IMG/VR virus record: IMGVR_UViG_3300022555_000003
Span: 128,001 to 192,000 of that record
Length of the DNA: 64,000 bases
Strand: one strand, 5' to 3'
Origin: a virus
Taxonomy: Duplodnaviria; Caudoviricetes
Positions 9,427 through 52,727 of this stretch are shown piece by piece. The notes beneath the pieces were generated by a model, which was not told the origin of the DNA, made no database searches, and saw nothing but the letters and a program-made list of their open reading frames with translations. The position numbers and the translations under genes were made by a program. Each line of letters begins with the position of its first letter. Within the stretch, counting starts at the first letter, position 1.

Positions 9427-9464
9427 ATTTTAATTATAGCAGTTTGAATGAGCTGATGTCAACA

Positions 9465-9680: not shown

Positions 9681-9839
9681 TACTCTTTAAGTATAGCAGT
9701 TTGAGCAACAAAATGTCAACCAAAACAAAACGTCGTTTAAGCAATTTTTAGAGCAGATCTAGTGCTATGACCCCAACTCGCCCCTAATAATGCGTTGTAC
9801 GACGTTTTACTTAGATTTACGTGTTGAAAACAAAAGACT
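9681..9839 (-). repeat. promoter-linked palindromic module, copy 1
   Basis: TTGACA-18-TATACT plus AAAACGTCGTTTAAGCAATT ... AATGCGTTGTACGACGTTTT and GTTGAAAACAAA. Confidence 0.85.
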
Positions 9840-9850
9840 TATGCCAGCAA

Positions 9851-10213
9851 TTAATACTCTTCAACAGTTATCTTCCCAGTTTTCAAATCGTCTTCGATCA
9901 TTTTGTCAACCCGCAGTTTGATTTCGTCAACCGTTTCTGGAATCTTTTTATTCATCAATTTTGCGCACTCTAATTTATGCCAGGCTTTGAATTCTTTTGT
10001 TTCAGCTAGGTGTTTCAATGCATCCTGTCGATTTTTTGTATTGCTACGATGTTCTCGACCTTCTCCAACTGCACCAGATTTAGAATGGATTAATCTCACT
10101 CCACTGTTTGAGGTGTCCTTGCCTCCGCCGCCACAACCACCAACTGAAAATGTTTGCATTTCCAAATCCTTCATGGTGATTGAAAATAATAATCGTTTTG
10201 TTTTAGTACTCAT
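9851..10213 (-). CDS. class I release factor/ArfB-like domain protein with GGQ replaced by GGG
   Basis: GCGGGGKDTSNSGVRLIH...HRSNTKNRQDAL aligns to GAGGQHVNTTDSAVRITH...RSQHKNK. Confidence 0.8.
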   Translation of the reverse strand: MSTKTKRLLFSITMKDLEMQTFSVGGCGGGGKDTSNSGVRLIHSKSGAVGEGREHRSNTKNRQDALKHLAETKEFKAWHKLECAKLMNKKIPETVDEIKLRVDKMIEDDLKTGKITVEEY

Positions 10214-10622
10214 AAAATTTAAGTCCTCTTAATGCCAAATATACTAATTGTCCTTGATCTAACTTGGTCGATTCGTCAACTATTGTCCATTCATTTATTA
10301 CAACGTCTTCGAGATTTGAATCTGTGAAATCAGCTCCACGCAAATCGGCGCCACACAAATTAGCACCAGTTAAATTTGCATTTCGTATATATGAATAACT
10401 TAAATCCGAATAACTTAAATTTGAGTTATTAAAACTTGTTCCATGTAAATCTGAAGTAGATAAATCTGATTCACTTAAATTTGTATATCCAAAATCTGAT
10501 CCATACATATTTAAATTAGATAACTTTGCACGAGGCAAAATCAAATTACGCAAGTCTTCTTCAACTAGATTATTGCCTCGAGTTGTATGTAATAATGTAC
10601 CACTTTTTGATTTAATCTTCAT
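10203..10622 (-). CDS. pentapeptide repeat protein
   Basis: runs of A/S-[DN]-L-x-x pentapeptides. Confidence 0.9.
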   Translation of the reverse strand: MKIKSKSGTLLHTTRGNNLVEEDLRNLILPRAKLSNLNMYGSDFGYTNLSESDLSTSDLHGTSFNNSNLSYSDLSYSYIRNANLTGANLCGADLRGADFTDSNLEDVVINEWTIVDESTKLDQGQLVYLALRGLKFYEY

Positions 10623-10839
10623 ACAAATCTTTAAGATATTTTAAAACCCATATCAAAAATTGTTCTTCTGTTAAGATAAAATACCATTCAATTTCAACAA
10701 AATCTGTATATGGAAAACACTCAACATCAAATGTTTTCTTAATCCATTTTTTAGCATCATTGAAATATTTTTTTAATAGTAGGCCGAAGTAATATTGCTG
10801 TATTTTTATCAGTTGATGTGATAATATAATTACCATCAA
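10612..10839 (-). CDS. hypothetical protein
   Basis: ORF in operon orientation. Confidence 0.5.
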   Translation of the reverse strand: MMVIILSHQLIKIQQYYFGLLLKKYFNDAKKWIKKTFDVECFPYTDFVEIEWYFILTEEQFLIWVLKYLKDLYED

Positions 10840-37633: not shown

Positions 37634-37964
37634 TGTTTCTCCTTTGTAACTCGTCGACCTGTTTAGATAATTTTTCAATTTCTCTATTTTTTGTGTGAAT
37701 AATATCTAACCTAGTCAATGCTGTATCACGCCACAATAAACCAACAGCTGAATGAGTTAATGTATTTAGATAATTATTGTTAGATTCTAATAGACTTACT
37801 GTGCGCTTTAATTCATATAATTCTTTATTGCTAGTCTGTATAGTTTCAAATAATTCTTCTATCTTATCTTGTAACAAAACTAATCTTTCAATGTTGTTCA
37901 CTTTAGGTTCCCCACTTGTTTCCAAATAATGATAATTGTAGCCTTGGACTAAAATGATAGCCAC
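37620..37964 (-). CDS. coiled-coil hypothetical protein
   Basis: heptad-rich; start uncertain. Confidence 0.45.
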   Translation of the reverse strand: MAIILVQGYNYHYLETSGEPKVNNIERLVLLQDKIEELFETIQTSNKELYELKRTVSLLESNNNYLNTLTHSAVGLLWRDTALTRLDIIHTKNREIEKLSKQVDELQRRNNELY

Positions 37965-38760
37965 GTTTCATAGCTTCTGTAGCTACATTGAATTCGTTAC
38001 TTTCATAAACATTTGTTACGCCACCAACTGGCATTACATATACTGGTCCATTAAAGTCATGATGTCGATATTCTTTAACAGCTTCATCAACTTCATCAAA
38101 GTGAGCAGGACAATCAACTACAAACTTAAGATAAGTAAATCCATACTGTTCATAACTGCTAACAATACTTGGTTGGATCGCAGCTTCCTTTGTTTCGCCA
38201 CTTGCACTTAACTTTGGACTTACTGAAAAGGTAAAATTAAGATGTCTGGTAAATATGAAACGCGACAAATCATTTGAGATCCATTTTGTTCCGTTCGTTT
38301 CAAACGTAACATTTCTAAGCCCTTTACTTTGCAAAATATCTAATAGCTCTGGATAAGCATCTTGCCACCCTAGTAATGGTTCTCCACCAGTAATTACTAG
38401 ATGGATGTCATTTCCATTAGGTTGAATCCACTTTTTATTTGGACAAAGGTCAGTAAGTTGATCTGCTAATTTATCTACACTAATAGTTGGGCTCAAATGT
38501 TTAAACTCAGAATAGACTGCTGGGTACGAATCACATCCTGTTTTAACAAGTGGCAAATCTTCTAAAACTTTGAATTGATCAATATTCTTAATAACTTCAG
38601 CTACTTCAGCATTATATTTGCCAACTGTTGGTACTGTAAGTCCAAAATCTTTACATCTAAAATTACATCCAAATGTTCGAAGAAAAATTGATAAATAACC
38701 AACAAAACGTCCCTCTGATTGATAAGAGGTGAATGTCTCACTTACTTTAATTTTATGCAT
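37903..38760 (-). CDS. queE: 7-carboxy-7-deazaguanine synthase
   Basis: SETFTSYQSEG, FLRTFGCNFRC...CDS, ITGGEP, ETNG, VSPK, LKFVV, PRLQ. Confidence 0.9.
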   Translation of the reverse strand: MHKIKVSETFTSYQSEGRFVGYLSIFLRTFGCNFRCKDFGLTVPTVGKYNAEVAEVIKNIDQFKVLEDLPLVKTGCDSYPAVYSEFKHLSPTISVDKLADQLTDLCPNKKWIQPNGNDIHLVITGGEPLLGWQDAYPELLDILQSKGLRNVTFETNGTKWISNDLSRFIFTRHLNFTFSVSPKLSASGETKEAAIQPSIVSSYEQYGFTYLKFVVDCPAHFDEVDEAVKEYRHHDFNGPVYVMPVGGVTNVYESNEFNVATEAMKRGYHFSPRLQLSLFGNKWGT

Positions 38761-38786
38761 ACTTATATTATATAATATTTTTTGAT

Positions 38787-39533
38787 TTATATCAAGTGAA
38801 TAATATCCCACAATCCAGTATCATGCTCAACCAAAACTGTACAACTTTCAACAAAGTCTCCACTATTTAAATAATCTATTCCATTAATAGATTTAATTTC
38901 TGGTGAGTGAACATGACCAACTATAATTCCTGCATATCCCTTACTTTTGCAATATTCTGATAAGCAACTTTCAAACTTAACCAAGTGATTAGCTGCCCGC
39001 TTAATATTTTTTTTGACAAACTTGCTAAAGCTCCAATGTTTAAGTCCAATTTTGTGACGTGCAATATTCAACGCACTATTACATTCGATTAAGACATCAT
39101 ATCCAATTGAACCAAATTTTGATAACCAAGGAGCCACTCTTGTTATTCCATCAAACAAATCACCGTGTGTTACAATATAACTGTGACCGTCAACGCAAAT
39201 GTGTTCAACTTCATTACAAATTGTTATTCCACCAAAATTTACAGAATCTTTAATAATTGGTCTCAAAAATTCATCATGATTACCAGTTATATAAAAAACT
39301 TTTGTTCCTTGCTTACTTTTTTTAAGAATTTGTTTGATAACATCATTATATGATTCTTTCCAACGCCATTTACGTTTTAAAGCCCAACCATCTAATATAT
39401 CACCATTAAGATAAAGAAACTCACACGTACTATGTTTCAAAAAATCAGCAGCTTCATTTGGATGACAATGTTTTGAGCCCAAATGTAAGTCACTCATAAC
39501 TACAGTTTTATAATGTGTTTTTTCTTTGTGCAT
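38787..39533 (-). CDS. LpxH-like metallophosphoesterase
   Basis: SDLHLGS, NGDILD, GNHDE, HGDLFD, GHVH, NSGDFVE. Confidence 0.85.
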   Translation of the reverse strand: MHKEKTHYKTVVMSDLHLGSKHCHPNEAADFLKHSTCEFLYLNGDILDGWALKRKWRWKESYNDVIKQILKKSKQGTKVFYITGNHDEFLRPIIKDSVNFGGITICNEVEHICVDGHSYIVTHGDLFDGITRVAPWLSKFGSIGYDVLIECNSALNIARHKIGLKHWSFSKFVKKNIKRAANHLVKFESCLSEYCKSKGYAGIIVGHVHSPEIKSINGIDYLNSGDFVESCTVLVEHDTGLWDIIHLI

Positions 39534-39544
39534 TATGTTATTTA

Positions 39545-39769
39545 TCAGACTATTTTGAATAACAATCCAATTACGTAAATGACAACGAAAAAACTGTTCA
39601 ATAAAACCAGGCTACTTTGTCTCCATCTATAGCCAATCCAAGCCCAGCCAATGGAACCAAACAAGCCAATTATAATGTTCGCTGGAAAAACATTAAATGC
39701 ATTCAATACTACACTGACGGCAGTCATCAAACTTGCTGACCATTTAACAAAGTTTTCTAATTTATTCAT
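39545..39769 (-). CDS. small membrane protein
   Basis: three hydrophobic segments. Confidence 0.6.
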   Translation of the reverse strand: MNKLENFVKWSASLMTAVSVVLNAFNVFPANIIIGLFGSIGWAWIGYRWRQSSLVLLNSFFVVIYVIGLLFKIV

Positions 39770-40063
39770 TTATATAGTACCATAACATTAAGATACACAA
39801 AAATACTACTAACAATGGAATATCAACCAAACAACAAATTGCTATTGTTAGCAATATGCTTATCAATATTTTATTTCTTAATTGTTTCAAAATTTACTCT
39901 TCATCAGTCTGATCAACTACTTTGTATACAACCGAAAATAATAACAATATAGTCAATACTATAGCCAATATTCCAGCTGTCATGGTTTCAAAGAATGTTG
40001 TGGACAATATCATAAAGAATAAAATCCAAATTATCCAACTTCGATATTTTACTATAACATGTT

Positions 40064-40615
40064 CTAGCATGAAAATTCACTTCGACTCTTAGTTGATTCC
40101 CACCAAGTAATATTTGATACCTTTACATTGAGGTCTTTCATCTTTTCTTGAACAATATCAGCTAGCCACTTGCTCAAATTTTCACTCGTTGGAACAAAGT
40201 CTACAATAAAGAAACTATCAAGTAATTCCTTTTCTTCTGTAGTATTTACAGTAGCCATATCTAAATATAACGTATCTGGTACACGACCAGCAGTCATTAA
40301 TCTACCTGGCACAATAACTGGCATAGTTGAAACTGATCCAACTAATCTATTATACAAAGGATCGTGACTATCGATAATAAACTTATGGTCAATATATGTG
40401 TTTAAGAATTCCTTTAACCAATTTAAATTATTAAAATCAACAACCATACCATTTGTTAAAGTATCTGATGTCATAGTGACTGTTACCTTAACTTCATGAC
40501 CGTGAATATGTCTACATTTACATACTGTAGTCTTAGCATATTCGGAAGATAGTGATTGACTCCAGACTCTATGCCCCATACAAAAATCAAAATCTTTAGA
40601 AATTGTATATCCCAT
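40064..40615 (-). CDS. queD: 6-carboxy-5,6,7,8-tetrahydropterin synthase
   Basis: F..GHR, CRHIHGH, GMVVDF, PTSENL. Confidence 0.9.
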   Translation of the reverse strand: MGYTISKDFDFCMGHRVWSQSLSSEYAKTTVCKCRHIHGHEVKVTVTMTSDTLTNGMVVDFNNLNWLKEFLNTYIDHKFIIDSHDPLYNRLVGSVSTMPVIVPGRLMTAGRVPDTLYLDMATVNTTEEKELLDSFFIVDFVPTSENLSKWLADIVQEKMKDLNVKVSNITWWESTKSRSEFSC

Positions 40616-40618
40616 TAT

Positions 40619-40837
40619 TTATCGAATCACCATAGCAAGTTTTGCTTCGCTTAATACCTTTTTTGGATTAACACCTAATACATATTTTATGCTAAATCCT
40701 GCACCACCAATATAGCTTGCTTTAATATCAGATACTTCGTTCCCTTCAGAATCTACATCAGCTATAGAAGCAAAAGGCAATAATGCTTGCTCCAATTCTT
40801 GAATTCGCTTTCTTAAAGTAAATACTTCGTTAGTCAT
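40619..40837 (-). CDS. hypothetical protein
   Basis: 72 aa, ATG 5 nt after TATAAT. Confidence 0.55.
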   Translation of the reverse strand: MTNEVFTLRKRIQELEQALLPFASIADVDSEGNEVSDIKASYIGGAGFSIKYVLGVNPKKVLSEAKLAMVIR

Positions 40838-40909
40838 AATTAATTATAGCACGTCCTACTAAAAAACTCAAACTTGATTCAAATGTCATCTAACATTTTC
40901 TCTATATAA

Positions 40910-41320
40910 CTACTTTTTTGCCCAACCTATACCTTTTCCACTTGCAGCAGCACGTCTTAAAATTGAAGTTGGATAACATTGATAGTAGTTCGAAATCACA
41001 TCAGCCATCCGTTTTGCACCTACTGGATTGTGGCTATGAACAATTGGAACTTCTTCGGGCCAAATATCATTTTCTTCCATCCATAAAACTATGTCGTAGC
41101 CTGTTTTTTCAGTAAATGGATCATACATATTTCTATATTGTAAAAATGATAAATCATGATCAATAGAACATTGTCTAACTTTATTAGTCTTTAAAATTTC
41201 TATTGCTTCATCATAATTCTTTGCCCATACCCAACCAATGTATGGGCACTCTCTTACATCATCAATCCACAAGTCAACATAATTTTTTTCGTTATCCATT
41301 TTGCTCGTATAGTTCAACAT
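40910..41320 (-). CDS. cyclic-phosphate-processing receiver-like domain protein
   Basis: LWIDDVR, SIDHDL, KTGYD, VHSHNPVG. Confidence 0.8.
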   Translation of the reverse strand: MLNYTSKMDNEKNYVDLWIDDVRECPYIGWVWAKNYDEAIEILKTNKVRQCSIDHDLSFLQYRNMYDPFTEKTGYDIVLWMEENDIWPEEVPIVHSHNPVGAKRMADVISNYYQCYPTSILRRAAASGKGIGWAKK

Positions 41321-41639
41321 TGTTAATACCCGTAATTATTTCAGGTTCAACAGGTTGATCACTTAACAATCTATCTGCATGAGTTTTTAATACTTTAGAT
41401 AATCTGATAGTTTCTTTTGGAGACAATAAAATTTCATCAAACGCACCATAACGACATTGATGTCCAAAAATATATTTGAGTGAAATCCAAAGTCTCTCAT
41501 ATATCGTTCGACTTTTTGTCAGATGAATACTTAAATAAACATATCTATCATCAACCAAATCTTCGTTATCATCAAAACTTTGAATAATAAATTGATGTTC
41601 AGTACAGCTACAATCACAAACAAATAAATCTCTACTCAT
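41292..41639 (-). CDS. hypothetical protein
   Basis: 115 aa, CDCSC..H. Confidence 0.6.
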   Translation of the reverse strand: MSRDLFVCDCSCTEHQFIIQSFDDNEDLVDDRYVYLSIHLTKSRTIYERLWISLKYIFGHQCRYGAFDEILLSPKETIRLSKVLKTHADRLLSDQPVEPEIITGINNVELYEQNG

Positions 41640-42078
41640 TTTCGTCAGTATCCTTTACTTCTTGCCATCCTAAATTTTTGAGATCTTCTCTGATCTCATC
41701 TGTAACTGTTCCTTCGCCAACATATTCTGATACATGTGAGGAATTAATATGATCATAAGATGTTTTGAACATATCTGCACAATCATCTAGCATATCTGCA
41801 TCTACTGCCATTCCACTACAATACCAATCAATATATGTTTCATCTGCTGCACCAGGAGTTACTCCATTTCTAATTTGTGCAACTATTGATCCAGAATGTC
41901 TCCAAGAACATCCCCAGGTTTCACTTTTTAAGATGGATATAACTTCTATTGCTTGCCAAGTTGTATTGCACAATGCAGCATATAAATTCTGAGCATAAGA
42001 ATCAGAAACACATTTACCACATATTACCAAACTCGTTAGTAAATCTTTTTCTAAATCCTTGATTTGATCTACGTCCAT
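41632..42078 (-). CDS. conserved phage hypothetical protein
   Basis: YAQNLYAALCN, SWR..G, YIDWYCSG, EG.VT.EI..DL..LGW. Confidence 0.7.
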   Translation of the reverse strand: MDVDQIKDLEKDLLTSLVICGKCVSDSYAQNLYAALCNTTWQAIEVISILKSETWGCSWRHSGSIVAQIRNGVTPGAADETYIDWYCSGMAVDADMLDDCADMFKTSYDHINSSHVSEYVGEGTVTDEIREDLKNLGWQEVKDTDENE

Positions 42079-42905
42079 AGTTCACTCCGATGATCTATTA
42101 CTTCTTTAAGCCACTTAGTATCTTCATCAAAATATTGCTTTTCAATCTCGTTGACAAGTTCGTATAAAGCATGTTGCTCTTCTTTTTCTTCTTGGGTAAT
42201 CTTACTATTGAATTGCCACATACCATCGCCATATTTTTCTGTCAATCTTTTCGAAAAAGCAGTAATTCCAGATTTATCATAAGGATCAACACGAGATGGG
42301 CGTTCGATAGTCCACCACTTATATGCTGACAATAACCAAATAGCTGATTCAGCTTGTGGAGTTAGTTTTCCTAACAATGGATCGCTTTCTTCTATTCCAC
42401 AATCAGTATTATATACTAATCCTATTTCCAAATTTAAGTGATCAATGCCAGCTTCTGCACAACGCCATTCGCTCCACCGCAATGGCCAAAACTTATGCCA
42501 AAATGGATTAGAGTACTTTTTATTATCTTTACCACCACACCATACTTGCATATGAGCCTTTTCAATCTCAATAAAATCAACTAGCTCATTAAATACACCA
42601 TGAAGTAACTTAGTATCATATTCATGAAATTTACCTTTAGGTAAACCTGTTTTAAGCATATGCGAAGAAATAAACCTATTTCTTAAATAGTACTTAACTT
42701 CATATAATGGATCAATCAAAAGTTCAGCTGGCTTTTCTAAAAGATCAGGCAATGTTTCTGTTACCCAATATGCAAATGGTTTATTAACTTTGGCTGCGGC
42801 ATGATAAGTTTCCCATTCATCCCACGGTAATGCTTCAGGCTTATCAACACAAAGCTTTTTACGTAACCAAAGAAAAAACTTACTCTCAGAATAATATCTA
42901 TTCAC
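42069..42905 (-). CDS. conserved phage hypothetical protein
   Basis: 278 aa Trp-rich ORF. Confidence 0.7.
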   Translation of the reverse strand: MNRYYSESKFFLWLRKKLCVDKPEALPWDEWETYHAAAKVNKPFAYWVTETLPDLLEKPAELLIDPLYEVKYYLRNRFISSHMLKTGLPKGKFHEYDTKLLHGVFNELVDFIEIEKAHMQVWCGGKDNKKYSNPFWHKFWPLRWSEWRCAEAGIDHLNLEIGLVYNTDCGIEESDPLLGKLTPQAESAIWLLSAYKWWTIERPSRVDPYDKSGITAFSKRLTEKYGDGMWQFNSKITQEEKEEQHALYELVNEIEKQYFDEDTKWLKEVIDHRSELWT

Positions 42906-43362
42906 TTGATTTCTCCCACGGAAAATGCGTATTTATTTTATTACAGTCTTTATTAATATAGTGAGCACAGAAGTCAATTTCTTTCCATTCACTTCGTTCA
43001 TTGTTGACAAGAACTGCAAACTTCACATTGTTATGCCAAACATTTTCCCATTCTTTACTATTTGGAGAACAAGATGATTTCCAATCTGAAACAATCCAAT
43101 TGAAAAAGTCACCTCTATTATTTAAATCCAGCATAACTAAAATGTTTGTTCGCTTTTCATATGCATCTTCTGCAAGCCAACAAACCGAAGCGTCCATTTT
43201 AATAACTTCAAGCTCGACATCTAATAGCTCACTCAACATTGTAGCTGGAATAACTCCTGTTGGAGACAATCCAACAATGTATTCTGGCATCCACCCACTC
43301 AGCGCAATATTAAGCGCCAATCCATGTACATCTTTCTCAACATCTGACCATGTATATTTCAT
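42898..43362 (-). CDS. degenerate type I phosphoribosyltransferase-like protein
   Basis: YTW..V...PEYIVGLS..GVIPATMLS..L and NILVMLDLNNRG in place of the PRPP loop. Confidence 0.6.
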   Translation of the reverse strand: MKYTWSDVEKDVHGLALNIALSGWMPEYIVGLSPTGVIPATMLSELLDVELEVIKMDASVCWLAEDAYEKRTNILVMLDLNNRGDFFNWIVSDWKSSCSPNSKEWENVWHNNVKFAVLVNNERSEWKEIDFCAHYINKDCNKINTHFPWEKSSE

Positions 43363-44040
43363 TTACGGCATCCTACTTATAATTGACATAAATTCTTGTT
43401 TCAAAGAATTATCTTCGCGTTTAAATACGCCTCTCATAACACTTGTTGTCATGGCTGAATCATGTTCCTTGACCCCCCGAGCTGTCATACAACCATGTTC
43501 AGCTTGAATTAATATTGCAACGCCTTCTGCTTTTGTTTCTGTTTCAATTGCATCAGCAATTTGAATAGTCATCTCTTCTTGAATCTGCGGCCTGCTTGCA
43601 ACCCAATTTACAATTCGATTAAACTTACTTAGCCCAATAACAGTTTTACCAGGAAAAATGCCAATATAGGCCTTACCAGTAATATTTTGCATATGATGAG
43701 CGCAAGTTGATCTAATAGATACAGGCCCTGCAACCATAATTCCTTCATATGAATTTATATTAGGAAAAGATGTTACTGCTGGCATTGGTTGATATCTACC
43801 AGAAAAGATTTCATTAACCATCATCTTTGCAACACGTCTAGCAGTATCTTGGGTATTATGATCCTTTTCGGTATCAATAACTAAACTCTTCAATACTTCT
43901 TCATACTTCTGAGTAACTTCACTAATTAGTAATTCTATTTCATCTTGATTAACATATTTACTAATGTTATGATTTGCAAGGTAAGAATCACCGCTTTCAA
44001 TAATTCTTCGTCTAATTACGTCGCTTATATTATCCATCAT
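43363..44040 (-). CDS. folE: GTP cyclohydrolase I
   Basis: TARRVAKM, STCAHH, GLSKFNR, RPQIQEE, HGCM..RGV. Confidence 0.95.
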   Translation of the reverse strand: MMDNISDVIRRRIIESGDSYLANHNISKYVNQDEIELLISEVTQKYEEVLKSLVIDTEKDHNTQDTARRVAKMMVNEIFSGRYQPMPAVTSFPNINSYEGIMVAGPVSIRSTCAHHMQNITGKAYIGIFPGKTVIGLSKFNRIVNWVASRPQIQEEMTIQIADAIETETKAEGVAILIQAEHGCMTARGVKEHDSAMTTSVMRGVFKREDNSLKQEFMSIISRMP

Positions 44041-44063
44041 ATTATTGTAACATACTCCTTACC

Positions 44064-44399
44064 TTAAGTCAAATGAGACTTTCCAGATATTACATCATTA
44101 GTGCATGAAACTTGCAATGCTAATACAATTGGAATCATCCAACCACCCATGCACACAAAATATATCAACATGGCTATCCAATAGCAATTACTAAACCACA
44201 CATACGGAATCTGTTGAATAGATGAACATGCTGTGCCAAATGATACTATACAAATAGGAATATTACATAGCCAAATAAATAAATTTCCGCACCACATAAG
44301 TGCAAATGGCATGAAAGCCGCTAATGCTAATACAACTACTGTTAACCCGCAGTTAACGCTAAACAATATTCTGTTTGCTGTATTCAAAAATTCTTTCAT
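44064..44399 (-). CDS. membrane protein
   Basis: several hydrophobic segments. Confidence 0.55.
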   Translation of the reverse strand: MKEFLNTANRILFSVNCGLTVVVLALAAFMPFALMWCGNLFIWLCNIPICIVSFGTACSSIQQIPYVWFSNCYWIAMLIYFVCMGGWMIPIVLALQVSCTNDVISGKSHLT

Positions 44400-45472
44400 T
44401 TTAGATTCTCCAATAATTTAAATGCGTGGAAAAACTTTTTATATGACGAATTCATATAACTACTAACATATGGTAAAAATGTGTCATAATATACAATACG
44501 TTCACGTATCATGCATTTGATAATTTCTCTGTTTTCCATATAAGATTCCCAGTTTGTTGTCCAATTTGATGGATACAAAAATTTAGGATGATTCTTAAAA
44601 ATTTCTGTATAGCTCAATCTATTTGGAGCAAAAGGAATTGCTTTAACAATTGGTCCTTCAGCACAAGTTGTGATACCTAGTGTTTCTTGCAGATTGGCAC
44701 TAAACAATACTTTCGATTCTCCAAGAATTTTATGATATTCTTTCTTAGACAATTGCTTATCTTGACAAATAACAAATTCATATTCTGGTAATTCTTTCGC
44801 TAGATCCCTAAAAATTTCTGGCTGTTTTTCTACTGAGACACGATGTGGAAATACAACTAAATTTCGTTTTGTAACTCCTTCAATATCATTCGAAATATCA
44901 CGTTTCAAATTTTCAAAAGGCCAACCAGTCTGGATAATCTTTTTAGTTTTTAGTACATGCTGTAATGTTGCTCCAGATCCGTACAATAGATTATCCCAAA
45001 ACATATTAATATGAAATTCTGTTGCAAAATAATTATGATCAATTGCATTATATAAACTTATTTCGAAGTTTGTTAACCAATCTTGTTTACCTAATCTACC
45101 CAACCCATCATTTTTATCGTAATTTCCGGCATGCCAAAGTCCATGGATCTTAACTGGGGTGTTTAAAAGGGAACTCATATACTTTAAACTAATGATTGTT
45201 GGATTCCAAGCATCAGTAAATAAGAATTGGTCGCCTTCTTTAATAATTTTATCAGAAAATAATTTTGCTATTTTTTTACATTGTTCGGCTTTAAAAGTGT
45301 TTGTTCCAGCAAAATCTAAGAACATTCCTGGTGTAGGAATAGTTCCAGTTAACAATTCTCCTTTGATTATCATATTCTCAATACCATTTTCTTTTAAAAG
45401 TTTAGGAATATGTGTTGCCCACTGACAAGTATAACGTGTTGGTATATTTTCAAGTTCTACAATATAAAGCAT
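44396..45472 (-). CDS. GT-B (GT4-like) glycosyltransferase
   Basis: FPHRVSVEKQPE, SANLQETLGI, PNRLSYTE. Confidence 0.75.
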   Translation of the reverse strand: MLYIVELENIPTRYTCQWATHIPKLLKENGIENMIIKGELLTGTIPTPGMFLDFAGTNTFKAEQCKKIAKLFSDKIIKEGDQFLFTDAWNPTIISLKYMSSLLNTPVKIHGLWHAGNYDKNDGLGRLGKQDWLTNFEISLYNAIDHNYFATEFHINMFWDNLLYGSGATLQHVLKTKKIIQTGWPFENLKRDISNDIEGVTKRNLVVFPHRVSVEKQPEIFRDLAKELPEYEFVICQDKQLSKKEYHKILGESKVLFSANLQETLGITTCAEGPIVKAIPFAPNRLSYTEIFKNHPKFLYPSNWTTNWESYMENREIIKCMIRERIVYYDTFLPYVSSYMNSSYKKFFHAFKLLENLK

Positions 45473-45477
45473 AATTA

Positions 45478-45506
45478 ATTATAACAAACTCTTATATTAA
45501 AGTCAA
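45478..45506 (-). promoter_or_regulatory. class II promoter
   Basis: TTTGACTTTAAT...TTTGTTATAAT, 17-bp spacer, ATG 5 nt later. Confidence 0.8.
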
Positions 45507-45526
45507 ATTTAGATAAATAAAAATGC

Positions 45527-45559
45527 GTGATAAGACAGACCATTAATCTGTCTTATCAC
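45527..45559 (+). other. 13-bp hairpin in leader of GIY-YIG gene
   Basis: GTGATAAGACAGA-CCATTAA-TCTGTCTTATCAC, downstream of GATAAATA at 45512-45519. Confidence 0.7.
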
Positions 45560-45589
45560 TAAACAGTTCAATCTACAAAGGAGATCGAC

Positions 45590-46516
45590 ATGTCTACTCG
45601 TATTTATTATACAGTATATAAAACTACAAATTTATTAAATGGAAAATATTATATTGGAAAACACAAAACAACCACCCCTAATGATTATTATTTAGGATCC
45701 GGTCTTGCATTAAAGAATGCAGTTAAAAAATATGGAAAGGATCAATTTGTTAAAAAAGTTATATGTATTTGTGAAACAGACGAATATGCTTATCTAATTG
45801 AAAGCAAATTAGTTACTAAATTAATAATAAAAGATGAAAATTGTTATAATATAGTATGTGGCGGGGGAGGGTTATATAATTCAGAAAAAGCGCACCAAAC
45901 TAGAATAGAAAAATATAACGGTAAATATTTTTCTGAAGACGGAACAAAATCAATGAAAAGCTTTACAAGTGCATATACTAAAGCTAATAACCCAATGCAT
46001 AAATTAATAGTACAGAAAAAATATTACGATTCAATAGCACAAAAGATTGGATATTCTGATCATCAAGAATATGTTATGGCAGTGAAACAAGCATTTGAAC
46101 AATGCAAAACTATAAAAACAACATCTGACTTTACTGGGCACCCACAACAAACCATTTTACATTTATTATTAAAACATTTTGGAAAAGACTATATTGATGA
46201 TATCAGAAAAGAAGGATTTAAAGAAGCTAGGCAAAGACAAACAAACAATTTTATATTGTCACAATTTTGTAGATCTAAAAAAGATGGAAAACTTAATCAT
46301 AATGCGTATATTTGGTTAGGAAAATCTCCCGAAAATAATATTTTTATTATATTTGGAAAACGTATTCAATTCTGCAGAGATAACAAAGTTAACACTTCGC
46401 TGGACCCAACTAAAGACCATTTAAGAAAAGGATGGACTTTTCAAAAAATATGCAAAGTGAAAGATTATTCACAACAACTTATCAGTAAATACGAGAATAT
46501 AACAATTTATGATTAA
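45590..46516 (+). mobile_element. free-standing GIY-YIG homing endonuclease-like gene (Seg-like)
   Basis: VYKTTNLLNGKYYIGKH, YLGSG, YN; inserted antisense into the deazaguanine locus. Confidence 0.85.
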
Positions 46517-46917
46517 TACCATTTGTAAATAACCTCACACCCATTTTCATCATCCTCACTTACGTTAATGTGAACTTCTCGCTGTGGGTATCTTCCAGCT
46601 ATATTTAAGTATAGCATATCAGCAATCATTTCACAACTACTGTTATTTAGATTTAATATTCCTGTGGTATATAATTTTTCACACCACCGTTTAAATTGGA
46701 TAAATTCGATATCTCTATTGTCATGAAATACTTCAATCTTTACTTTAAAATGAAAAATATGTCTGTGCGGATGTTGTAAAAAACTTACGTCATCAAGATT
46801 TGGATCAAAACCAGCAGCTGGATAACAATGGATTCCTTCTTTTTGAAAAGTAATCCAAATGAATTTCTTAGAATTACAAATATTACTTTCTACTTTGATA
46901 CGTTCATCCATTGTCAT
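46513..46917 (-). CDS. second QueD-like T-fold protein
   Basis: EGIHCYP, HPHRHIFH, RDIEFIQFK, SCEMIA, VSEDDENG. Confidence 0.65.
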   Translation of the reverse strand: MTMDERIKVESNICNSKKFIWITFQKEGIHCYPAAGFDPNLDDVSFLQHPHRHIFHFKVKIEVFHDNRDIEFIQFKRWCEKLYTTGILNLNNSSCEMIADMLYLNIAGRYPQREVHINVSEDDENGCEVIYKWY

Positions 46918-47423
46918 TAAATTTTAGAGTCTCCCTTGTACATTTCCCAATGGGTGAAATTTGAGTATGATTTAAGATCACTTAATTGATGTACCCAAAC
47001 TCCAGCGTTCGTTGCTCCCCAAGAGGTATCATCTAATTTAATTGTTGTATTATAATTGAAATTTTTAATATTTGGCAACTTAACACTTAACATAAGTACA
47101 AACTTATCATGTCCAATTATTCCTTGATAAGCAGTGGAAAGTTCAGTTGCATATTTAACATCTGAGTCTAGTGTTACCCAAAAATTATTATCAAGAAGTA
47201 CTTTGATAGTATCAAGCCAGTCTAAAAATGAATTATTTACAGCCATGAAACTTTGATTTGCTCCAAGATAAATATGCTTGCACTTGTGCTTTTTTGCAGC
47301 ATCAATCATCTCTACGCTATCAATTAATCCAGTTACAAATAATGTCTTTTTTCCTAAACAAATTGTCCGCTCAACTTCTTCACCAATAAAAAATTTTGAA
47401 ACTTGCCGTTGATCTTTGTCCAT
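46917..47423 (-). CDS. conserved hypothetical protein of deazaguanine locus
   Basis: FFIGEEVE..TLFV.G..HIYLGANQSF..IKLDD..ATN.GVW; class II promoter at 47429-47457. Confidence 0.7.
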   Translation of the reverse strand: MDKDQRQVSKFFIGEEVERTICLGKKTLFVTGLIDSVEMIDAAKKHKCKHIYLGANQSFMAVNNSFLDWLDTIKVLLDNNFWVTLDSDVKYATELSTAYQGIIGHDKFVLMLSVKLPNIKNFNYNTTIKLDDTSWGATNAGVWVHQLSDLKSYSNFTHWEMYKGDSKI

Positions 47424-47458
47424 AACTAATTATAACAAATATAGTTATTAAAGTCAAA

Positions 47459-48355
47459 TCACTCTGACCAAGTAATATATCCCCTATTGTAATTTGGTTG
47501 GCGATTCTTTCCGTCTTCAAATGCTAATTCCCATTCTGTATTACGATCATAACTTCTTGTCCAAAAAGCATTAACATTCAATCTACCTGATTCAATATAT
47601 TTTACTGCTTTGAGCATACAAGAATGAAATTTGCTAGATCTTGGACTTGGAAAAACAATTGTAGCTGCTTTCCATAATAAATTGCTAAAGTCAGTAGTTA
47701 CTTGCTTTTGAGATCCCATTACAACTAATGCATTGTCATTAAGAATATCTTTAGAAAATACATCGTCTCTTCCACTCAAATCAATAACAATATCGTACTT
47801 TCCTCTAGGATCTGACAATAATTTATTTCCCCAAAGTTGTTTATTTGACGTTCCAACTACATCAATCAATCCTCTAATATTGTCAAGAATAGTAGCATGA
47901 GCAACCCGTGCTAAAAATCCACTTCCAAGAATTAAAATTCTAGTTGTTAATTTATCACGTTTAATAAATTCATGATGGGATTGTAAAATTAAATTTATTC
48001 CACATGCAACTGGTTCAATAATATATTTTGGTTCAGCAGCAGGAACTTTAACAAAATTATCAACATTAACATTATAAAAATCTGCATATGCTGGCTCGCC
48101 TCTTGTAGCAACATAATCGCCAATTTTATACATGGATGGAATATTTACGCCAACTTCTATAATTTGTCCTAGACCTTCATGTCCTTGCATTGTTAATGGA
48201 AGTGTTTTGAATTTTCCAGTCATCATGTCGATATCACTTCTACAGACACCAGTCATGATGGACTTTACTTTTATCTCATCATATTTAATTTCTGGACAAC
48301 TCCAATCGGTTTTCTCAAAAAACTTGCCTGATCCATCAGTGTGCAATAATCTCAT
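47459..48355 (-). CDS. Zn-dependent medium-chain dehydrogenase-like protein
   Basis: GVCRSD, GHEGLG, GDYV, EPVAC, ILGSGFL. Confidence 0.85.
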   Translation of the reverse strand: MRLLHTDGSGKFFEKTDWSCPEIKYDEIKVKSIMTGVCRSDIDMMTGKFKTLPLTMQGHEGLGQIIEVGVNIPSMYKIGDYVATRGEPAYADFYNVNVDNFVKVPAAEPKYIIEPVACGINLILQSHHEFIKRDKLTTRILILGSGFLARVAHATILDNIRGLIDVVGTSNKQLWGNKLLSDPRGKYDIVIDLSGRDDVFSKDILNDNALVVMGSQKQVTTDFSNLLWKAATIVFPSPRSSKFHSCMLKAVKYIESGRLNVNAFWTRSYDRNTEWELAFEDGKNRQPNYNRGYITWSE

Positions 48356-49260
48356 TAGTTATCCCCTAACTGTATTTGGTCATGAATCCAAAGATCTTCA
48401 ATCAGATTATAATTCCAATATCTTTCTATATCTTTCAAACAATAGGTATGATTCACCATAGTTAAGTAGGCAGATTCTGGACACAAGCCAAACTCATACT
48501 TTATGACTTCGCCATTATCAAAAGTGAATACAATATTTAATTCAGATGGCTTTAATGTTCTCCAATTTGCAGTAAGTTTTATACTTTTATTAGCCCATGT
48601 ATAATGTAATACAGCTTCATCATCTACATCATACACTCCATCCTTTTTAACTGTACCATAATTTGTATTTGTAACATCAGATAATTGCCAATTTTGTTTA
48701 GTTCGTTTATATGATAAATCAGCATTACCAAAATGTGTCTTAGTTAAATTAGTAAACCAACTCAGTAAGTGAGGCATTAAATCTCTACTAACTCCACCCC
48801 ACGCCAACGAATTAGTTGTAAACCAAGATCCTGGGTTTGGAACTCTATCTGTATTACACCAATTAAATTCTACCCTGATTGCATTTGTAAATAAATGTTT
48901 GAGTAAATTTTTATCATTAATTACAATGTCTCGAAATTGATTATTCTTTACCATTGACCATCTAGTATTTGGAAAGTTAGTCACTAGTGAAGACCATTCT
49001 GTAGATGTTTTGAGACCAGGTTTTTCAATAAAAACAACATCAGGTTCATATTTTGCTACAGTTTTAGCAATATCACCATGAGTGTAATTTGGTGTACAAA
49101 TGTTTACAGTATCAAAATGATTAGATTCTAAAGCTTTTTCTAGATCATCAAAATCAGCTTTAACACATGGATCCACAGTTACAACAGTGTGTCCATATTC
49201 TGATAATACTTTTTTGTATAATTGACCAAATCCCATTCCAATAACTAAACAATTTAACAT
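48355..49260 (-). CDS. Gfo/Idh/MocA-family oxidoreductase
   Basis: IGMGFG, ICTPN..H, FIEKPG, GGVSRDLMPH. Confidence 0.85.
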   Translation of the reverse strand: MLNCLVIGMGFGQLYKKVLSEYGHTVVTVDPCVKADFDDLEKALESNHFDTVNICTPNYTHGDIAKTVAKYEPDVVFIEKPGLKTSTEWSSLVTNFPNTRWSMVKNNQFRDIVINDKNLLKHLFTNAIRVEFNWCNTDRVPNPGSWFTTNSLAWGGVSRDLMPHLLSWFTNLTKTHFGNADLSYKRTKQNWQLSDVTNTNYGTVKKDGVYDVDDEAVLHYTWANKSIKLTANWRTLKPSELNIVFTFDNGEVIKYEFGLCPESAYLTMVNHTYCLKDIERYWNYNLIEDLWIHDQIQLGDN

Positions 49261-49296
49261 AGCGGTTGTTCCTTATCCATATTTAATTATAACACA

Positions 49297-50748
49297 TTAT
49301 TTGAAAAATTTGTTGAATTGTGTAGTCGCGTTAAATGTTTTTTTTCCTATGTGACCAGACGGACCCATAATCTGTAAATAAAATTTGTCGTACTTATCGA
49401 TTATTGCTAACGCTGAAGTAAGCGATTTTGCTTCAAATGCTTTATTTACAATATCTCTCCATTTAATAATTTGATGTGATTCTTCCACTAACATCTTTGG
49501 AATAAACCCTTGATCATACATTTCGTTGGCTCGTTGCACTGCCGAAATATGAAGATAAACATTATGAGACATTAACAATGTGTATGCAAATGAATCCCAA
49601 CTTGTTTTACCTTCCTTACCATTCTTATTTAGGTCGCCTTTTGCATAGTAACAAATATCACTTATTTTTAATTTTGAACTAATGGGTGTTTCTTCAAAAT
49701 GCTTATAGATTTTATCTTGTAATACAGCATCTCTAAAACTTCTATTGTCAGTTGAATATTTTTTGTCGTCTGCGCTTGGTCCCATTTTATACGACCACTT
49801 GCCTCTATCTTTGAGACTAATTTCATAATATACTTGTCCATTAGCAGTAGCAAGAAATGGACTTGCACAATCATAACTTATAGTCAAATTTGGATTATGA
49901 TTTCTTCTAATTGCCCGTTGTAAGTCTGTAAACATTACAGAAAATTCAAGTTTAGAAGTACCAAGGAAATGAATCCAATCATGTATTCCTGGTTCAAGCA
50001 ATCCTTCCCATTTTAAATACATTAGTCTACGCAAAATTAGATGTGGATCAGCTCTATTCTGACCACCAAATGCATACCCATTAAAATGACCTGGATACTT
50101 AGATGGATTACAATAATCTTTTACTTCATCATACCAACTATCTGCTTCTGTATGATTTTCACCTTGTAAAACATTTAAAAATTTACAGTTACCATTTCTA
50201 TTATTTATGAAATAGTCGTTGTTAATTTTAGTTGCCGCTAATGCTCCAGCATAAGAAGTGATGCCGGTATTTTTCTTTCCTTCTTCGTTACGACATACCC
50301 ACGCTGGAATATCTAACGTAATAGAGTAATCAGCATTAGTATCCATCCAAGACAATACTTGGCTACGTTTCTTTTGCGCGATAGGACAATTAGGATTTGA
50401 CCAATCTGCTGGCCACTTACCACCTGCAATTTGGAATCCGCCTGAATCTGTTAAAATAAATGAATTCTGCCTGTCGCGGCGAGTAATCATTCTTTCTTTT
50501 GGATCATTTGCTGTAATATCGATATTAGCATGACCCGCTGAATATAATGACCACTTATATTGAAAATATCCTAATGCTGCATTTAGATAGTTCATACCTT
50601 CTACACCATTAAAAAATCCATTAGGAATTCTCGACTTTTCCACATACTCTTCAACTTGTTGTTTGCCAACGTAAGTTGAAAAGAATGTGGAAAGAGCTGG
50701 TGTAAAGATAGCAAAATCTTTTTGACTAGCTGTTAAGTTTGTGTTCAT
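49297..50748 (-). CDS. tRNA-guanine transglycosylase-like / DpdA-like base-exchange enzyme
   Basis: LTDSGGFQ, LDIP, NVLQG, HFLG, SYDCASP. Confidence 0.8.
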   Translation of the reverse strand: MNTNLTASQKDFAIFTPALSTFFSTYVGKQQVEEYVEKSRIPNGFFNGVEGMNYLNAALGYFQYKWSLYSAGHANIDITANDPKERMITRRDRQNSFILTDSGGFQIAGGKWPADWSNPNCPIAQKKRSQVLSWMDTNADYSITLDIPAWVCRNEEGKKNTGITSYAGALAATKINNDYFINNRNGNCKFLNVLQGENHTEADSWYDEVKDYCNPSKYPGHFNGYAFGGQNRADPHLILRRLMYLKWEGLLEPGIHDWIHFLGTSKLEFSVMFTDLQRAIRRNHNPNLTISYDCASPFLATANGQVYYEISLKDRGKWSYKMGPSADDKKYSTDNRSFRDAVLQDKIYKHFEETPISSKLKISDICYYAKGDLNKNGKEGKTSWDSFAYTLLMSHNVYLHISAVQRANEMYDQGFIPKMLVEESHQIIKWRDIVNKAFEAKSLTSALAIIDKYDKFYLQIMGPSGHIGKKTFNATTQFNKFFK

Positions 50749-51464
50749 TATTTGCTCAATGCCGGAATACGATAAATGTATGCTGCTTGGCCGCTATCAA
50801 CTTCAATTTCCATCATACCATCATTACTTAGACGTACAGTCTTGTCACCACTCAATGATAAAATAGATGAAATACGTTGAACTGGATAAGACCAAGCCGT
50901 GCGAAGTTTATCACTAGCAGGTTCATGAAAAATATATCGTCCAGTATGTGAACTTGGATCGCCAAATGTAACAACTAACTTACCCTTTTCAGTAACAAAC
51001 TGACAATTGTCAACGTCACTATTGGCACTGCTTTGGTACTTAAATCTCGTTGTAGAACTAGCTGAAGGTTCGAATTCTACTTCAAACTTTGCTCCAACAA
51101 ATTCAAGATCTGGAATTAATTGATTAGCAGTATCAGGCGACATCAAGCGATATGAATTATTATAATCACCAGATTCATTATTGAAAGAAATACTTTCAGC
51201 TTGATTCTTGCTGTTGTTAACTACTTTAATATTTGCATTTTCTTGATACTCAGGGCAGTTTAAAATTGTATTTAAACTATCAAGATTTGGAAATCCAATA
51301 GTTCCAGGAAGATCTGTAAGTTCAGTATGATACGTTCCTGATAAAACTACAGTCTTGTCATCTGAAATACCACTTACCTTGGTAACTCCATCTGTTGTTG
51401 AAATCTTGGTTCTCTTCATAAAACCAGATGTAAATTGAATAATCTCTTTTAGAGTGTTTTTCAT
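50748..51464 (-). CDS. sliding clamp-like protein (gp45-like)
   Basis: 238 aa beta-rich protein immediately downstream of polB; motif similarity weak. Confidence 0.5.
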   Translation of the reverse strand: MKNTLKEIIQFTSGFMKRTKISTTDGVTKVSGISDDKTVVLSGTYHTELTDLPGTIGFPNLDSLNTILNCPEYQENANIKVVNNSKNQAESISFNNESGDYNNSYRLMSPDTANQLIPDLEFVGAKFEVEFEPSASSTTRFKYQSSANSDVDNCQFVTEKGKLVVTFGDPSSHTGRYIFHEPASDKLRTAWSYPVQRISSILSLSGDKTVRLSNDGMMEIEVDSGQAAYIYRIPALSK

Positions 51465-51472
51465 TGTTGCTC

Positions 51473-52684
51473 CTATTTAAAAAATTTTGAAAAATTACTT
51501 TTTGTCTGTCTACTTGTTTCTATATTTAGATTTAAAATACCAACTAAATTTTCAATCTTGTTATCAATTGCAGATGAAGACATTGCATCATCATCAAATG
51601 GCAATTCCTTAAACCATTGTGGAAGTCTGTGTTCGTCTATTGGATATGCAACACTTGTATAACCCATTGGATTATTTCTAAGTTTACATACAATAACTTT
51701 CATACCATCAAATATTTCTAATGCCATATTATCGTGATTGAGTTGCCGTAATACATTCCAATTCAATGAAGCCCTAACATGACCAGGTAAATTAGATTTC
51801 TTCTTTGCCTCAAGCTCTCTAAACTTTGTTAAATTATTAACACGTTTTGGCATACCTTTTTCCCAAGCTGGCAAATTTTGAAATACTTCTTTGAAGTTTA
51901 AAATCTTTTCTCGAACTAATGAAAAATCTACTTCAGTTAAGATATCCATTAAAATATCACGTAAGAAGTCTTGAACAATCTTTGGTGTATCTGCTCGCTT
52001 GAGATCTAATCCCATAGCTTTCATTTTACCAGGCGACCCATCTATATCAAGACGTTTGCCATCTTTATAATACATCAAAATAGCATAACGTTTCTTAGTG
52101 ATAAATAATCCAGTTTTGCCAACTAACTCAAGCCCACATCGAATTATTTTACCATTTTGTTCTGGAGAATGAAATGCATCAAAGCAAGCTTCTGGAAAAG
52201 TTTCATTAACCTGATTAGCTAATTCTTCGTATAACTTAATACAAGTCTCTTTATCCCATTCCATTTTATCATTTTCAACATCATCTTTTATTAATGGCCA
52301 AATTGAAAAAATATCTGAATCTGTATCTCCGTATATTACACCATCTCCAACATAGTCAAACTTTCCCGTCAAACAATTATTAATATAAGAAGCCATATGT
52401 CTAACAATAACACGTCCAGACAATGTCGTACTTTGTCCAACACGCTTATCATAAAATCGACAGCCAGGATTTAAAAAAGAACCATAAGCTGAATTTAAAC
52501 TATTCTTAGATACTAATTGTTTCTGATCATAACTAAAAATAGTTTGTTTAACTTCGTCTAGATTCTTATGAAAAATTTTGCCATCACGAATTTCAAGATC
52601 ATTTTCTAAAATAAACAACTTTAACTCTTCAACATTACCAGAGTCTATCAAATTTTGTAATTTCTGAAAGTCAATATTAATCAT
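51473..52684 (-). CDS. family B DNA polymerase, C-terminal part
   Basis: KNSLNSAYG, YGDTDS, KKRYA, KAMGLD. Confidence 0.93.
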   Translation of the reverse strand: MINIDFQKLQNLIDSGNVEELKLFILENDLEIRDGKIFHKNLDEVKQTIFSYDQKQLVSKNSLNSAYGSFLNPGCRFYDKRVGQSTTLSGRVIVRHMASYINNCLTGKFDYVGDGVIYGDTDSDIFSIWPLIKDDVENDKMEWDKETCIKLYEELANQVNETFPEACFDAFHSPEQNGKIIRCGLELVGKTGLFITKKRYAILMYYKDGKRLDIDGSPGKMKAMGLDLKRADTPKIVQDFLRDILMDILTEVDFSLVREKILNFKEVFQNLPAWEKGMPKRVNNLTKFRELEAKKKSNLPGHVRASLNWNVLRQLNHDNMALEIFDGMKVIVCKLRNNPMGYTSVAYPIDEHRLPQWFKELPFDDDAMSSSAIDNKIENLVGILNLNIETSRQTKSNFSKFFK

Positions 52685-52698
52685 TAAGTCTTATTACT

Positions 52699-52727
52699 AT
52701 TATAGCAGGTCATACTAATTTATTCAA
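52699..52727 (-). promoter_or_regulatory. promoter between the two polB genes
   Basis: TTGAAT-17-TATAAT with TG extension spanning the upstream stop codon. Confidence 0.65.

Follow-up and report, generated by a model that had tools for sequence, protein, structure and literature searches.

The 64,000-nucleotide window analysed here, bases 128001-192000 of the IMG/VR viral contig IMGVR_UViG_3300022555_000003 (242,080 bp, with inverted terminal repeats), comes from a marine jumbo phage with a 242-kb genome and carries at 37,903-50,748 a cluster of 7-deazaguanine genes next to genes of DNA replication. Read from its sequence, this cluster could specify a replication-linked DNA modification in which a glycosylated 7-deazaguanine-derived base is placed in DNA, a proposal to which we give an even chance. 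By its gene content the pathway is of the phiST/ACP17 type, with FolE, QueD, QueE and the T-fold protein DpdL acting together with a DpdA transglycosylase, and a glycosyltransferase (GT) gene is closely tied to DpdL. At the cluster region the phage is closest, among cultivated relatives, to PA5oct (Wroclawvirus), a jumbo phage of Pseudomonas, and to the Sinorhizobium phage Phosso.

The assignments of FolE, QueD and QueE are secure at the level of homology to characterised enzymes, and the three would together make 7-carboxy-7-deazaguanine (CDG). FolE (GTP cyclohydrolase I; 43363..44040, minus strand; Pfam GTP_cyclohydroI, 6e-50) would turn GTP into dihydroneopterin triphosphate, which QueD (6-carboxytetrahydropterin synthase, 183 aa; 40064..40615, minus strand; Pfam PTPS, 1.9e-26), the sole PTPS match in the genome and bearer of the CxxxHGH motif, would convert into 6-carboxytetrahydropterin. 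CDG would then be formed by a QueE-like radical SAM 7-carboxy-7-deazaguanine synthase (302 aa; 37903..38811, minus strand) that matches phrog_2076 (2e-47) and, weakly, the TIGR QueE models (8e-13 to 6e-7). Neither QueC nor QueF was found in the 242-kb genome with PF06508 and PF14489, searches that were positive in control genomes, or by tblastn of the genome with phage QueC and phage QueF; CheckV puts the completeness of the contig at 74%, though terminal repeats are present. The absence of queC first remarked for the window thus extends to the whole genome, and to QueF as well. With FolE, QueD and QueE encoded, QueC and QueF not found and the DpdL signature described below, the cluster has the make-up expected of a QueC-independent system of the 2'-deoxy-7-deazaguanosine (dDG) type, and a QueC-independent 7-deazaguanine DNA-modification system is very probably what it encodes.

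In the QueE-like protein and in each of its 47 distinct homologues from related loci, three cysteines are invariant in the arrangement Cx3Cx39C, with a phenylalanine at the usual position of the third cysteine in this lineage. The known radical-SAM cluster motifs of QueE are Cx3Cx2C and Cx14Cx2C, and the spacing seen here may be a further variant.

The second T-fold protein of the cluster (P0003, 134 aa; 46513..46917, minus strand; phrog_17812, 3e-34) shows the features of DpdL. DpdL was defined as a QueD paralogue in which the CxxxHGH motif is changed to LxxxHRHxF, and its proposed function is the decarboxylation of CDG to 7-deazaguanine in phiST, a phage in which dDG replaces all dG (Cui, Hutinet et al., NAR 2023, PMC10516641). 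P0003 carries the published LxxxHRHxF signature and aligns over its full length with DpdL of phiST (CGPG_00067), ACP17 and others, the SCEM and EDGE blocks included, so that the tentative link of this protein to DpdL in the original prediction was correct. Just upstream lies a conserved core protein, P4 (P0004, 168 aa; 46917..47423, minus strand), which keeps this position next to DpdL and is present in 75 of 86 related loci as well as in ACP17. No match to P4 was obtained in Pfam, PHROG, NCBIfam or the PDB, and an ESM Atlas lookup was empty. An exhaustive profile search of a library of 1.8 billion proteins gave 796 clusters at 50% identity, some of them with extra C-terminal parts for which neither the core families nor Pfam gave a match; one of these is probably a chimeric assembly. 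A P4 homologue could not be demonstrated in PA5oct, Phosso, BUDD or BUCT-ZZ01, and BCSR5 offers only a weak N-terminal resemblance.

Sequence and hidden Markov model (HMM) searches gave nothing useful for the small ORFs (open reading frames) or for the two enzymes that would act on the base and the sugar, and fold predictions were therefore used for both enzymes. The first, a DpdA-like transglycosylase of 483 aa (P0001; 49297..50748, minus strand), was modelled by AlphaFold2 (AF2) with 36 homologues (pLDDT 85) and has a predicted tRNA-guanine transglycosylase (TGT) fold. The top 50 PDB matches returned by Foldseek are all Zymomonas mobilis TGT (E 5e-7, TM about 0.5 by target), the best of them being 1q2r, a covalent-intermediate structure (E 5e-7), and among the AlphaFold models of Swiss-Prot proteins the matches are archaeal and bacterial TGTs. 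The blocks D101-SGGFQ, LD146IP and D293-CASP are invariant in the 36 homologues; we take Asp101 and Asp293 to correspond to Asp102 and Asp280 of the Z. mobilis enzyme, an equivalence drawn from the motifs and not from superposition. The TGT/DpdA-like identity proposed earlier is thus upheld by fold and catalytic aspartate motifs, and no second TGT was found in the genome. In Vibrio phage 2.275.O a P0001 homologue adjoins QueF, a YhhQ-type transporter, QueC, an amidotransferase and FolE, a neighbourhood that connects the family with deazaguanine metabolism without recourse to the locus studied here.

The second enzyme (P0002, 358 aa; 44396..45472, minus strand) has no match to Pfam (Glycos_transf_1) or to any other HMM library used, and sequence searches of the PDB were likewise of no use. 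Its AF2 model (pLDDT 93, pTM 0.90) shows the two-domain GT-B fold, with a Foldseek probability of 1.0 to BshA, MshA, glycogen synthase and PglA, and on this model P0002 can be called with confidence a GT-B, GT4-like glycosyltransferase. The best PDB matches are retaining enzymes of the GT4 class (BshA, MshA, glycogen synthase, PglA and LmbT; E about 1e-7, TM about 0.6), and among viral models the ACP17 homologue superimposes with a TM of 0.87. Against Swiss-Prot the tRNA-queuosine alpha-mannosyltransferase ranks seventh (E 5e-8, TM 0.59, 16% identity), a match that does not stand out from the other GT4 matches of the protein. The invariant residues include His210, Arg211, Lys216, Glu263 and Glu272, the last two with eight residues between them as against seven in the E-x7-E donor-site motif.

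The role proposed for this GT is drawn from gene linkage. Among 50,697 records of isolated phages, DpdL homologues were found in 29 and strong GT homologues in 18, and all 18 fall within the DpdL-bearing 29 (hypergeometric 5e-62). They are eleven Wroclawviruses, Phosso, two ACP17 records, BUDD, X1, BUCT-ZZ01 and BCSR5, and they represent about seven independent lineages. The groups involved are unrelated, from T4-like Busanvirus and a cyanophage to jumbo phages with hosts of four genera. In ACP17, Phosso, PA5oct and BUCT-ZZ01 the GT and DpdL genes overlap or are direct neighbours, and elsewhere the distance is within 2-4 kb. The GT follows DpdL and not the type of DpdA: ACP17, BUDD and BUCT-ZZ01 have another DpdA, and in Vibrio phage 2.275.O the DpdA type of this phage occurs together with QueC and with neither DpdL nor GT. 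Some phages, RHph_I1_18 and phiST with its relatives among them, have DpdL and no GT. The Synechococcus cyanophage BUCT-ZZ01 (L009) encodes between FolE and DpdA a second GT of 447 aa (9364-10707; Glyco_trans_1_4), which hints at a disaccharide or at two alternative sugars.

In metagenomes the homologues are numerous (more than 6,600 for the GT and more than 7,000 for DpdA), many of them from Tara or other marine samples on contigs of 200-360 kb. A search of IMG/VR with the single Gfo/Idh/MocA protein of the cluster found nothing, and the GT alignment was used for retrieval instead. The 86 related loci mentioned above are 80 IMG/VR loci retrieved in this way with the GT profile, five other related loci and the window itself, and their ORFs were clustered. 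The GT is present in all 86, DpdL in 77, DpdA-like in 74, the clamp in 67, PolB in 66, FolE in 59, QueE in 54 and the phosphoribosyltransferase (PRTase) in 44, absences that are largely explained by contig ends. No QueC is encoded in these loci (1.29 Mb in total). The constant order is PolB, clamp, DpdA, P4, DpdL, an 80-aa ORF, GT, PRTase, HIT, FolE and QueE, in which the GT stays fixed between DpdL and FolE while the surroundings vary. The conservation of the GT with the deazaguanine genes anticipated in the original prediction is therefore found, and is tightest with DpdL; it extends over about seven lineages and all 86 of the related loci sampled, and the synteny takes the form of a fixed DpdA-P4-DpdL-GT core.

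Around this core the sugar genes change from lineage to lineage. In this phage they are a Gfo/Idh/MocA NAD(P) oxidoreductase (301 aa; 48355..49260, minus strand; Pfam GFO_IDH_MocA, 2e-8), with the motifs GxGxxG, EKP and D..H, and a Zn-dependent medium-chain dehydrogenase (298 aa; 47459..48355, minus strand; Pfam ADH_N, 3e-9) with a GHE motif, a GSGFLA Rossmann motif and no structural-zinc lobe; by these motifs both look catalytically intact. The two occur in 22 of the 86 loci, together in every one of the 22 and always between DpdA and P4, and the pair is absent from ACP17, PA5oct, Phosso, BUDD, BUCT-ZZ01 and BCSR5. It is thus an optional cassette in the loci sampled and not, as first supposed, a co-conserved part of the core. 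A short gene similar to UDP-glucose dehydrogenase (UGDH) or GDP-mannose dehydrogenase lies within the cluster in 31 loci, a methyltransferase gene in 11, a DegT-type aminotransferase gene in 10 and a cytidylyltransferase gene in 8; epimerases or dehydratases of the short-chain dehydrogenase/reductase (SDR) family, a phosphomannomutase, a B12-radical SAM enzyme and a 2-oxoglutarate oxygenase are further inserts. A constant GT with variable sugar-tailoring genes is the pattern of systems that decorate one target with lineage-specific sugars. The earlier suggestion of sugar or cyclitol synthesis is supported in its first half by the sugar-nucleotide genes that recur in the clusters of relatives; for a cyclitol pathway there are only weak, partial matches to the inositol enzymes IolG and IolM, and this candidate was set aside.

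The glycosylated base that we favour would arise as follows. CDG would be decarboxylated to 7-deazaguanine by the DpdL-type protein, and the DpdA-like enzyme would swap guanine in DNA for the 7-deazaguanine base after replication, both steps being modelled on phiST. The GT, from the linkage of its gene, would then transfer a sugar from a nucleotide sugar to the deazaguanine-derived base, most probably already in DNA, and P4 may prepare the acceptor. Because the set of sugar-nucleotide enzymes inside the cluster varies, the donor sugar is expected to differ among lineages; here it would depend on the Gfo/Idh/MocA oxidoreductase and the Zn-dehydrogenase, and a UGDH-like gene and an SDR epimerase gene 9 kb away may contribute. 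The tRNA-queuosine mannosyltransferase is a precedent that an enzyme of the GT4 class can glycosylate a 7-deazaguanine base within a polynucleotide. For a large, mostly marine group of jumbo phages and for PA5oct, ACP17 and Phosso, we put a shade short of an even chance on the wider proposal that guanine is replaced by a glycosylated 7-deazaguanine, with a sugar that can be swapped by cassette and an acceptor created by P4 and DpdL through a so far undescribed chemistry.

Two cultivated phages provide indirect support. PA5oct, which carries a DpdA-GT-DpdL module, resists restriction enzymes at G-containing sites, and its authors inferred a modified G from the QueE and PTPS genes and left the base itself unidentified (PMC12191111). 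DpdL and DpdA of ACP17 produced no dDG in E. coli, and the authors considered that other enzymes might be required (PMC10516641); in ACP17, P4 and the GT are encoded on either side of this pair.

Several points weigh against a glycosylated base in DNA. The placement of the base in DNA and of the sugar on the base is deduced from sequence alone. P0001 has no match to Pfam TGT, NCBIfam, the PADLOC DpdA models or, by sequence, the PDB; this test has little power, since the published DpdA3 of phiST and DpdA of ACP17 are likewise unmatched by Pfam and PADLOC. When its profile was compared by hhalign with the DpdA proteins of ACP17, BUDD, BUCT and phiST the motifs were collinear and the scores not significant, and P0001 is for this reason placed in none of the classes DpdA1-4. 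Comparison with the known proteins thus returned the DpdL signature and the TGT fold, without a DpdA HMM match. The linkage of GT and DpdL was counted over related phages, so that the effective number of independent observations is small. The top matches of the GT-B model, such as BshA, MshA and LmbT, use small molecules, and its acceptor could be a free metabolite. Lastly, plain 7-deazaguanine has no hydroxyl group and an O-glycoside requires an extra step, which makes the acceptor the main chemical difficulty. The possibilities are an N2- or C-glycoside, a glycosyl ester of CDG, or a side chain hydroxylated or reduced by P4 or by a cupin-like protein of the relatives. That protein (c11) is basic, about 155 aa long and marked by an invariant HDHPW block, and it is encoded after the GT in 51 of the 86 loci (for example L069:5213-5680 and L012:14599-15114). 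A route by hydroxylation and subsequent glycosylation was rejected for this phage, as c11 is absent from it and the Cupin_2 structure matches are weak (E about 1). Glycosylation of a hydroxymethylated pyrimidine as in T4 was also discarded: the genome has no match to PF00303 and encodes ThyX only, and without a ThyA-family hydroxymethylase such an acceptor is unlikely. Isoelectric points, tried as a hint of DNA binding, were uninformative, PolB and DpdA being themselves acidic in this lineage.

The lack of an obvious sugar acceptor on 7-deazaguanine also speaks for a simpler product, plain dDG in DNA, with GT, P4 and the oxidoreductases put to other use (virion or host glycosylation, for example) and merely sharing an early replication operon. 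Here the strongest precedent is phiST, which with DpdL and DpdA3 and no GT has fully substituted dDG (PMC10516641), and the genome also holds other glycosyltransferases and a separate sugar island. We consider this explanation unlikely, given that the GT is confined to DpdL-bearing phages in all 18 of its strong matches and stands beside DpdL where the gene order is otherwise unrelated, that its place between DpdL and FolE is kept amid varying surroundings, and that DpdL and DpdA of ACP17 did not suffice for dDG.

It is improbable, too, that DpdL and the GT make a free glycosylated pterin or deazapurine outside DNA while DpdA inserts a different, unglycosylated base. Pterins and purines are bound by T-fold enzymes, and the best structural matches of the GT, BshA, MshA, LmbT and a 2-deoxystreptamine GT, take small-molecule acceptors. 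Analogues of such a metabolite exist in the bacterial pterin glycosides and in N2-glycosylated pyrrolopyrimidine antibiotics. Against this, in nearly all loci the DpdL-GT pair has DpdA on one side and FolE/QueE on the other and is close to replication genes, no genes of export or self-resistance were recognised, and the phage would have no obvious benefit, whereas protection of DNA is the documented role of these pathways.

A further gene of the operon-like run encodes a homologue of xanthine-guanine phosphoribosyltransferase (XGPRT) of 154 aa (42898..43362, minus strand; Pfam E 0.013), which is homologous to PRTases of PA5oct, BUCT-ZZ01 and marine relatives that do pass the Pfam threshold. 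The loops that bind phosphoribosyl pyrophosphate (PRPP) and pyrophosphate (PPi) are canonical in four relatives (DDINDTGAT and RGG) and read LDLNNRGDF and SPTG in this phage and in its nearest relative, L016. By sequence the protein looks catalytically degenerate, and because both loops are lost in the two phages the function of the PRTase is probably not needed in them. In the relatives its role is most likely the salvage of guanine freed by base exchange, the alternative being phosphoribosylation of a deazapurine. Tubercidin and toyocamycin biosynthesis provide examples of PRTases that act on deazaguanines. A pre-replicative route, in which the PRTase makes a deazapurine nucleotide that reaches the phage polymerase as a dNTP and the TGT-fold protein works on tRNA or as an auxiliary, would suit the XGPRT-like protein with intact PRPP loop in 44 of the 86 loci, PA5oct and BUCT-ZZ01 and the HIT and IMPDH/GMP-reductase genes in clusters of relatives, and is nonetheless very improbable, since the loops have decayed here and in L016 in an otherwise intact cluster, no PRTase homologue is encoded within 12 kb of DpdL in ACP17, DpdA acts after replication in every characterised phage deazaguanine system and guanine salvage accounts for the PRTase equally well.

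Among the known systems closest to it, the cluster shares with phiST the FolE/QueD/QueE set without QueC, the LxxxHRHxF paralogue of QueD, a position beside the DNA polymerase and a divergent TGT-fold transglycosylase missed by Pfam; phiST differs in that GT, P4 and sugar genes are all absent, the identity between its DpdL and P0003 is only 34%, and its DpdA3 (259 aa) has no detectable sequence similarity to P0001. ACP17 and PA5oct share a GT homologue (33% and 43% identity, respectively) beside DpdL, together with DpdA, FolE and QueE, and both differ by lacking the Gfo/Zn-dehydrogenase pair. ACP17, listed as a DpdL carrier (PMC10516641), also shares P4 and has a DpdA of another subfamily (424 aa), whereas PA5oct has the same DpdA family, the clamp and split PolB in the same order and an intact PRTase. 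No link of the GT of either phage to modification was found in the searchable literature. The tRNA-queuosine glycosyltransferases (QTMAN/GTDC1 type) are also GT-B, GT4-like enzymes that act on a 7-deazaguanine-derived base within a polynucleotide; they differ in their acceptor, the cyclopentenediol of queuosine in tRNA, a group out of reach of the pathway here because it needs QueC, QueA and QueG. The T-even glucosyltransferases and the phage systems based on 5-hydroxymethylcytosine or 5-hydroxycytosine have in common with the cluster a phage GT-B enzyme, a supply of nucleotide sugars, a non-canonical base in the major groove and a sugar that varies between lineages; they glycosylate hydroxylated pyrimidines, whereas the GT here is linked to genes for a purine, deazaguanine. 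T4-type enzymes are not among the close structural matches of P0002, and a cyanophage 'DNA alpha-GT' ranks 34th.

To our knowledge, all known DNA glycosylations are on pyrimidines and all eight known 7-deazaguanines of DNA are sugar-free. Our literature search yielded no report of a glycosylated 7-deazaguanine in DNA, in agreement with the earlier view that the base has no counterpart among the described 7-deazaguanines. A link of glycosylation to deazaguanine synthesis of the DpdL type seems not to have been described before, its components and the published genomes that bear the GT being already known. If the proposal is right, the base would be the first purine of any DNA to bear a sugar and a new class of natural DNA base, the failure of ACP17 DpdL and DpdA to give dDG in E. 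coli would be explained, and the DpdL-GT pair would serve as a genomic marker of the modification. The system would be ecologically widespread, as indicated by the thousands of metagenomic homologues of GT and DpdA, and would bear on evasion of restriction and CRISPR, on modification-sensing defences (END nucleases, Dag glycosylases) and on phage sequencing and engineering. Cultivable carriers exist, above all PA5oct, a phage studied for therapy, which makes the prediction directly testable.

The layout of the locus is compact. The minus strand carries almost all genes of the window (G+C about 33%), and in the direction of transcription, from high to low coordinates, the cluster starts with PolB (two ORFs), the probable clamp, the DpdA-like gene, Gfo/Idh/MocA, the Zn-dehydrogenase, P4 and DpdL. 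There follow a plus-strand GIY-YIG endonuclease gene, the GT, a 111-aa membrane protein, FolE and the PRTase-like gene, and then five genes with no evident tie to the pathway (among them cREC_REC), QueD, a small ORF, a metallophosphoesterase and QueE. From the clamp through the PRTase-like gene, start and stop codons overlap or lie no more than about 36 bases apart, which indicates one operon-like run; about 4.5 kb without evident link to the pathway (metallophosphatase, cREC_REC, unknown proteins) is found among the PRTase-like gene, queD and queE. All genes named in the original prediction are present on the minus strand and tightly coupled up to the clamp and PolB, and the order given there needs one correction, as the PRTase-like gene is found next to folE on the side that faces queD.

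The probable sliding clamp (238 aa; 50748..51464, minus strand; phrog_12062) has homologues annotated as PCNA in PAC2 and as sliding clamp in Phosso, its gene ends in an overlap with the start of the DpdA-like gene, and it is directly upstream of DpdA in 67 of the related loci. The upstream border of the cluster is formed by the family B DNA polymerase (51473..54362, minus strand; Pfam DNA_pol_B_exo1 and DNA_pol_B), whose exonuclease and N-terminal part (52710-54362) and C-terminal part (51473-52684, both on the minus strand) correspond in alignment to residues 3-519 and 536-886 in a relative of 890 aa that is not split. The two ORFs are 25 bases apart and each piece has an extra tail of its own. 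The polymerase of PA5oct is interrupted at a similar place by a homing endonuclease, and the split seen here may have been left behind by a mobile element since lost.

A Seg-like homing endonuclease of the GIY-YIG type (45590..46516, plus strand; phrog_314, 1e-30; DNA matches to genes of Seg-like homing endonucleases) is outside the pathway and sits exactly between DpdL and the GT, in place of the 80-aa ORF (c2) of the relatives. The nearest relative, L016, whose GT is 72% identical, has the same arrangement with no homing endonuclease at this site. The hydrophobic membrane protein of 111 aa (44064..44399, minus strand), recognised from its translation, overlaps the end of the GT gene and is kept in L016 only. 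The same holds for the cREC_REC protein (cyclic-phosphate processing receiver; 40910-41320, minus strand), between the PRTase-like gene and QueD, and for its three neighbours of 115, 148 and 278 aa (41292-42905), proteins of unknown function that are likewise kept in the nearest relative only. Directly upstream of QueE is a calcineurin-like metallophosphoesterase (38787-39533, minus strand), and Phosso has one a few kb from its own cluster.

Finally, a plus-strand island at 59398-62134 encodes a GT2 enzyme, a short UGDH-like dehydrogenase, an 82-aa ORF and an SDR epimerase/dehydratase. Its UGDH-like protein is 33% identical to the one embedded in the deazaguanine clusters of relatives, and the island may supply or modify the donor sugar for the GT of the cluster or serve a separate glycosylation.

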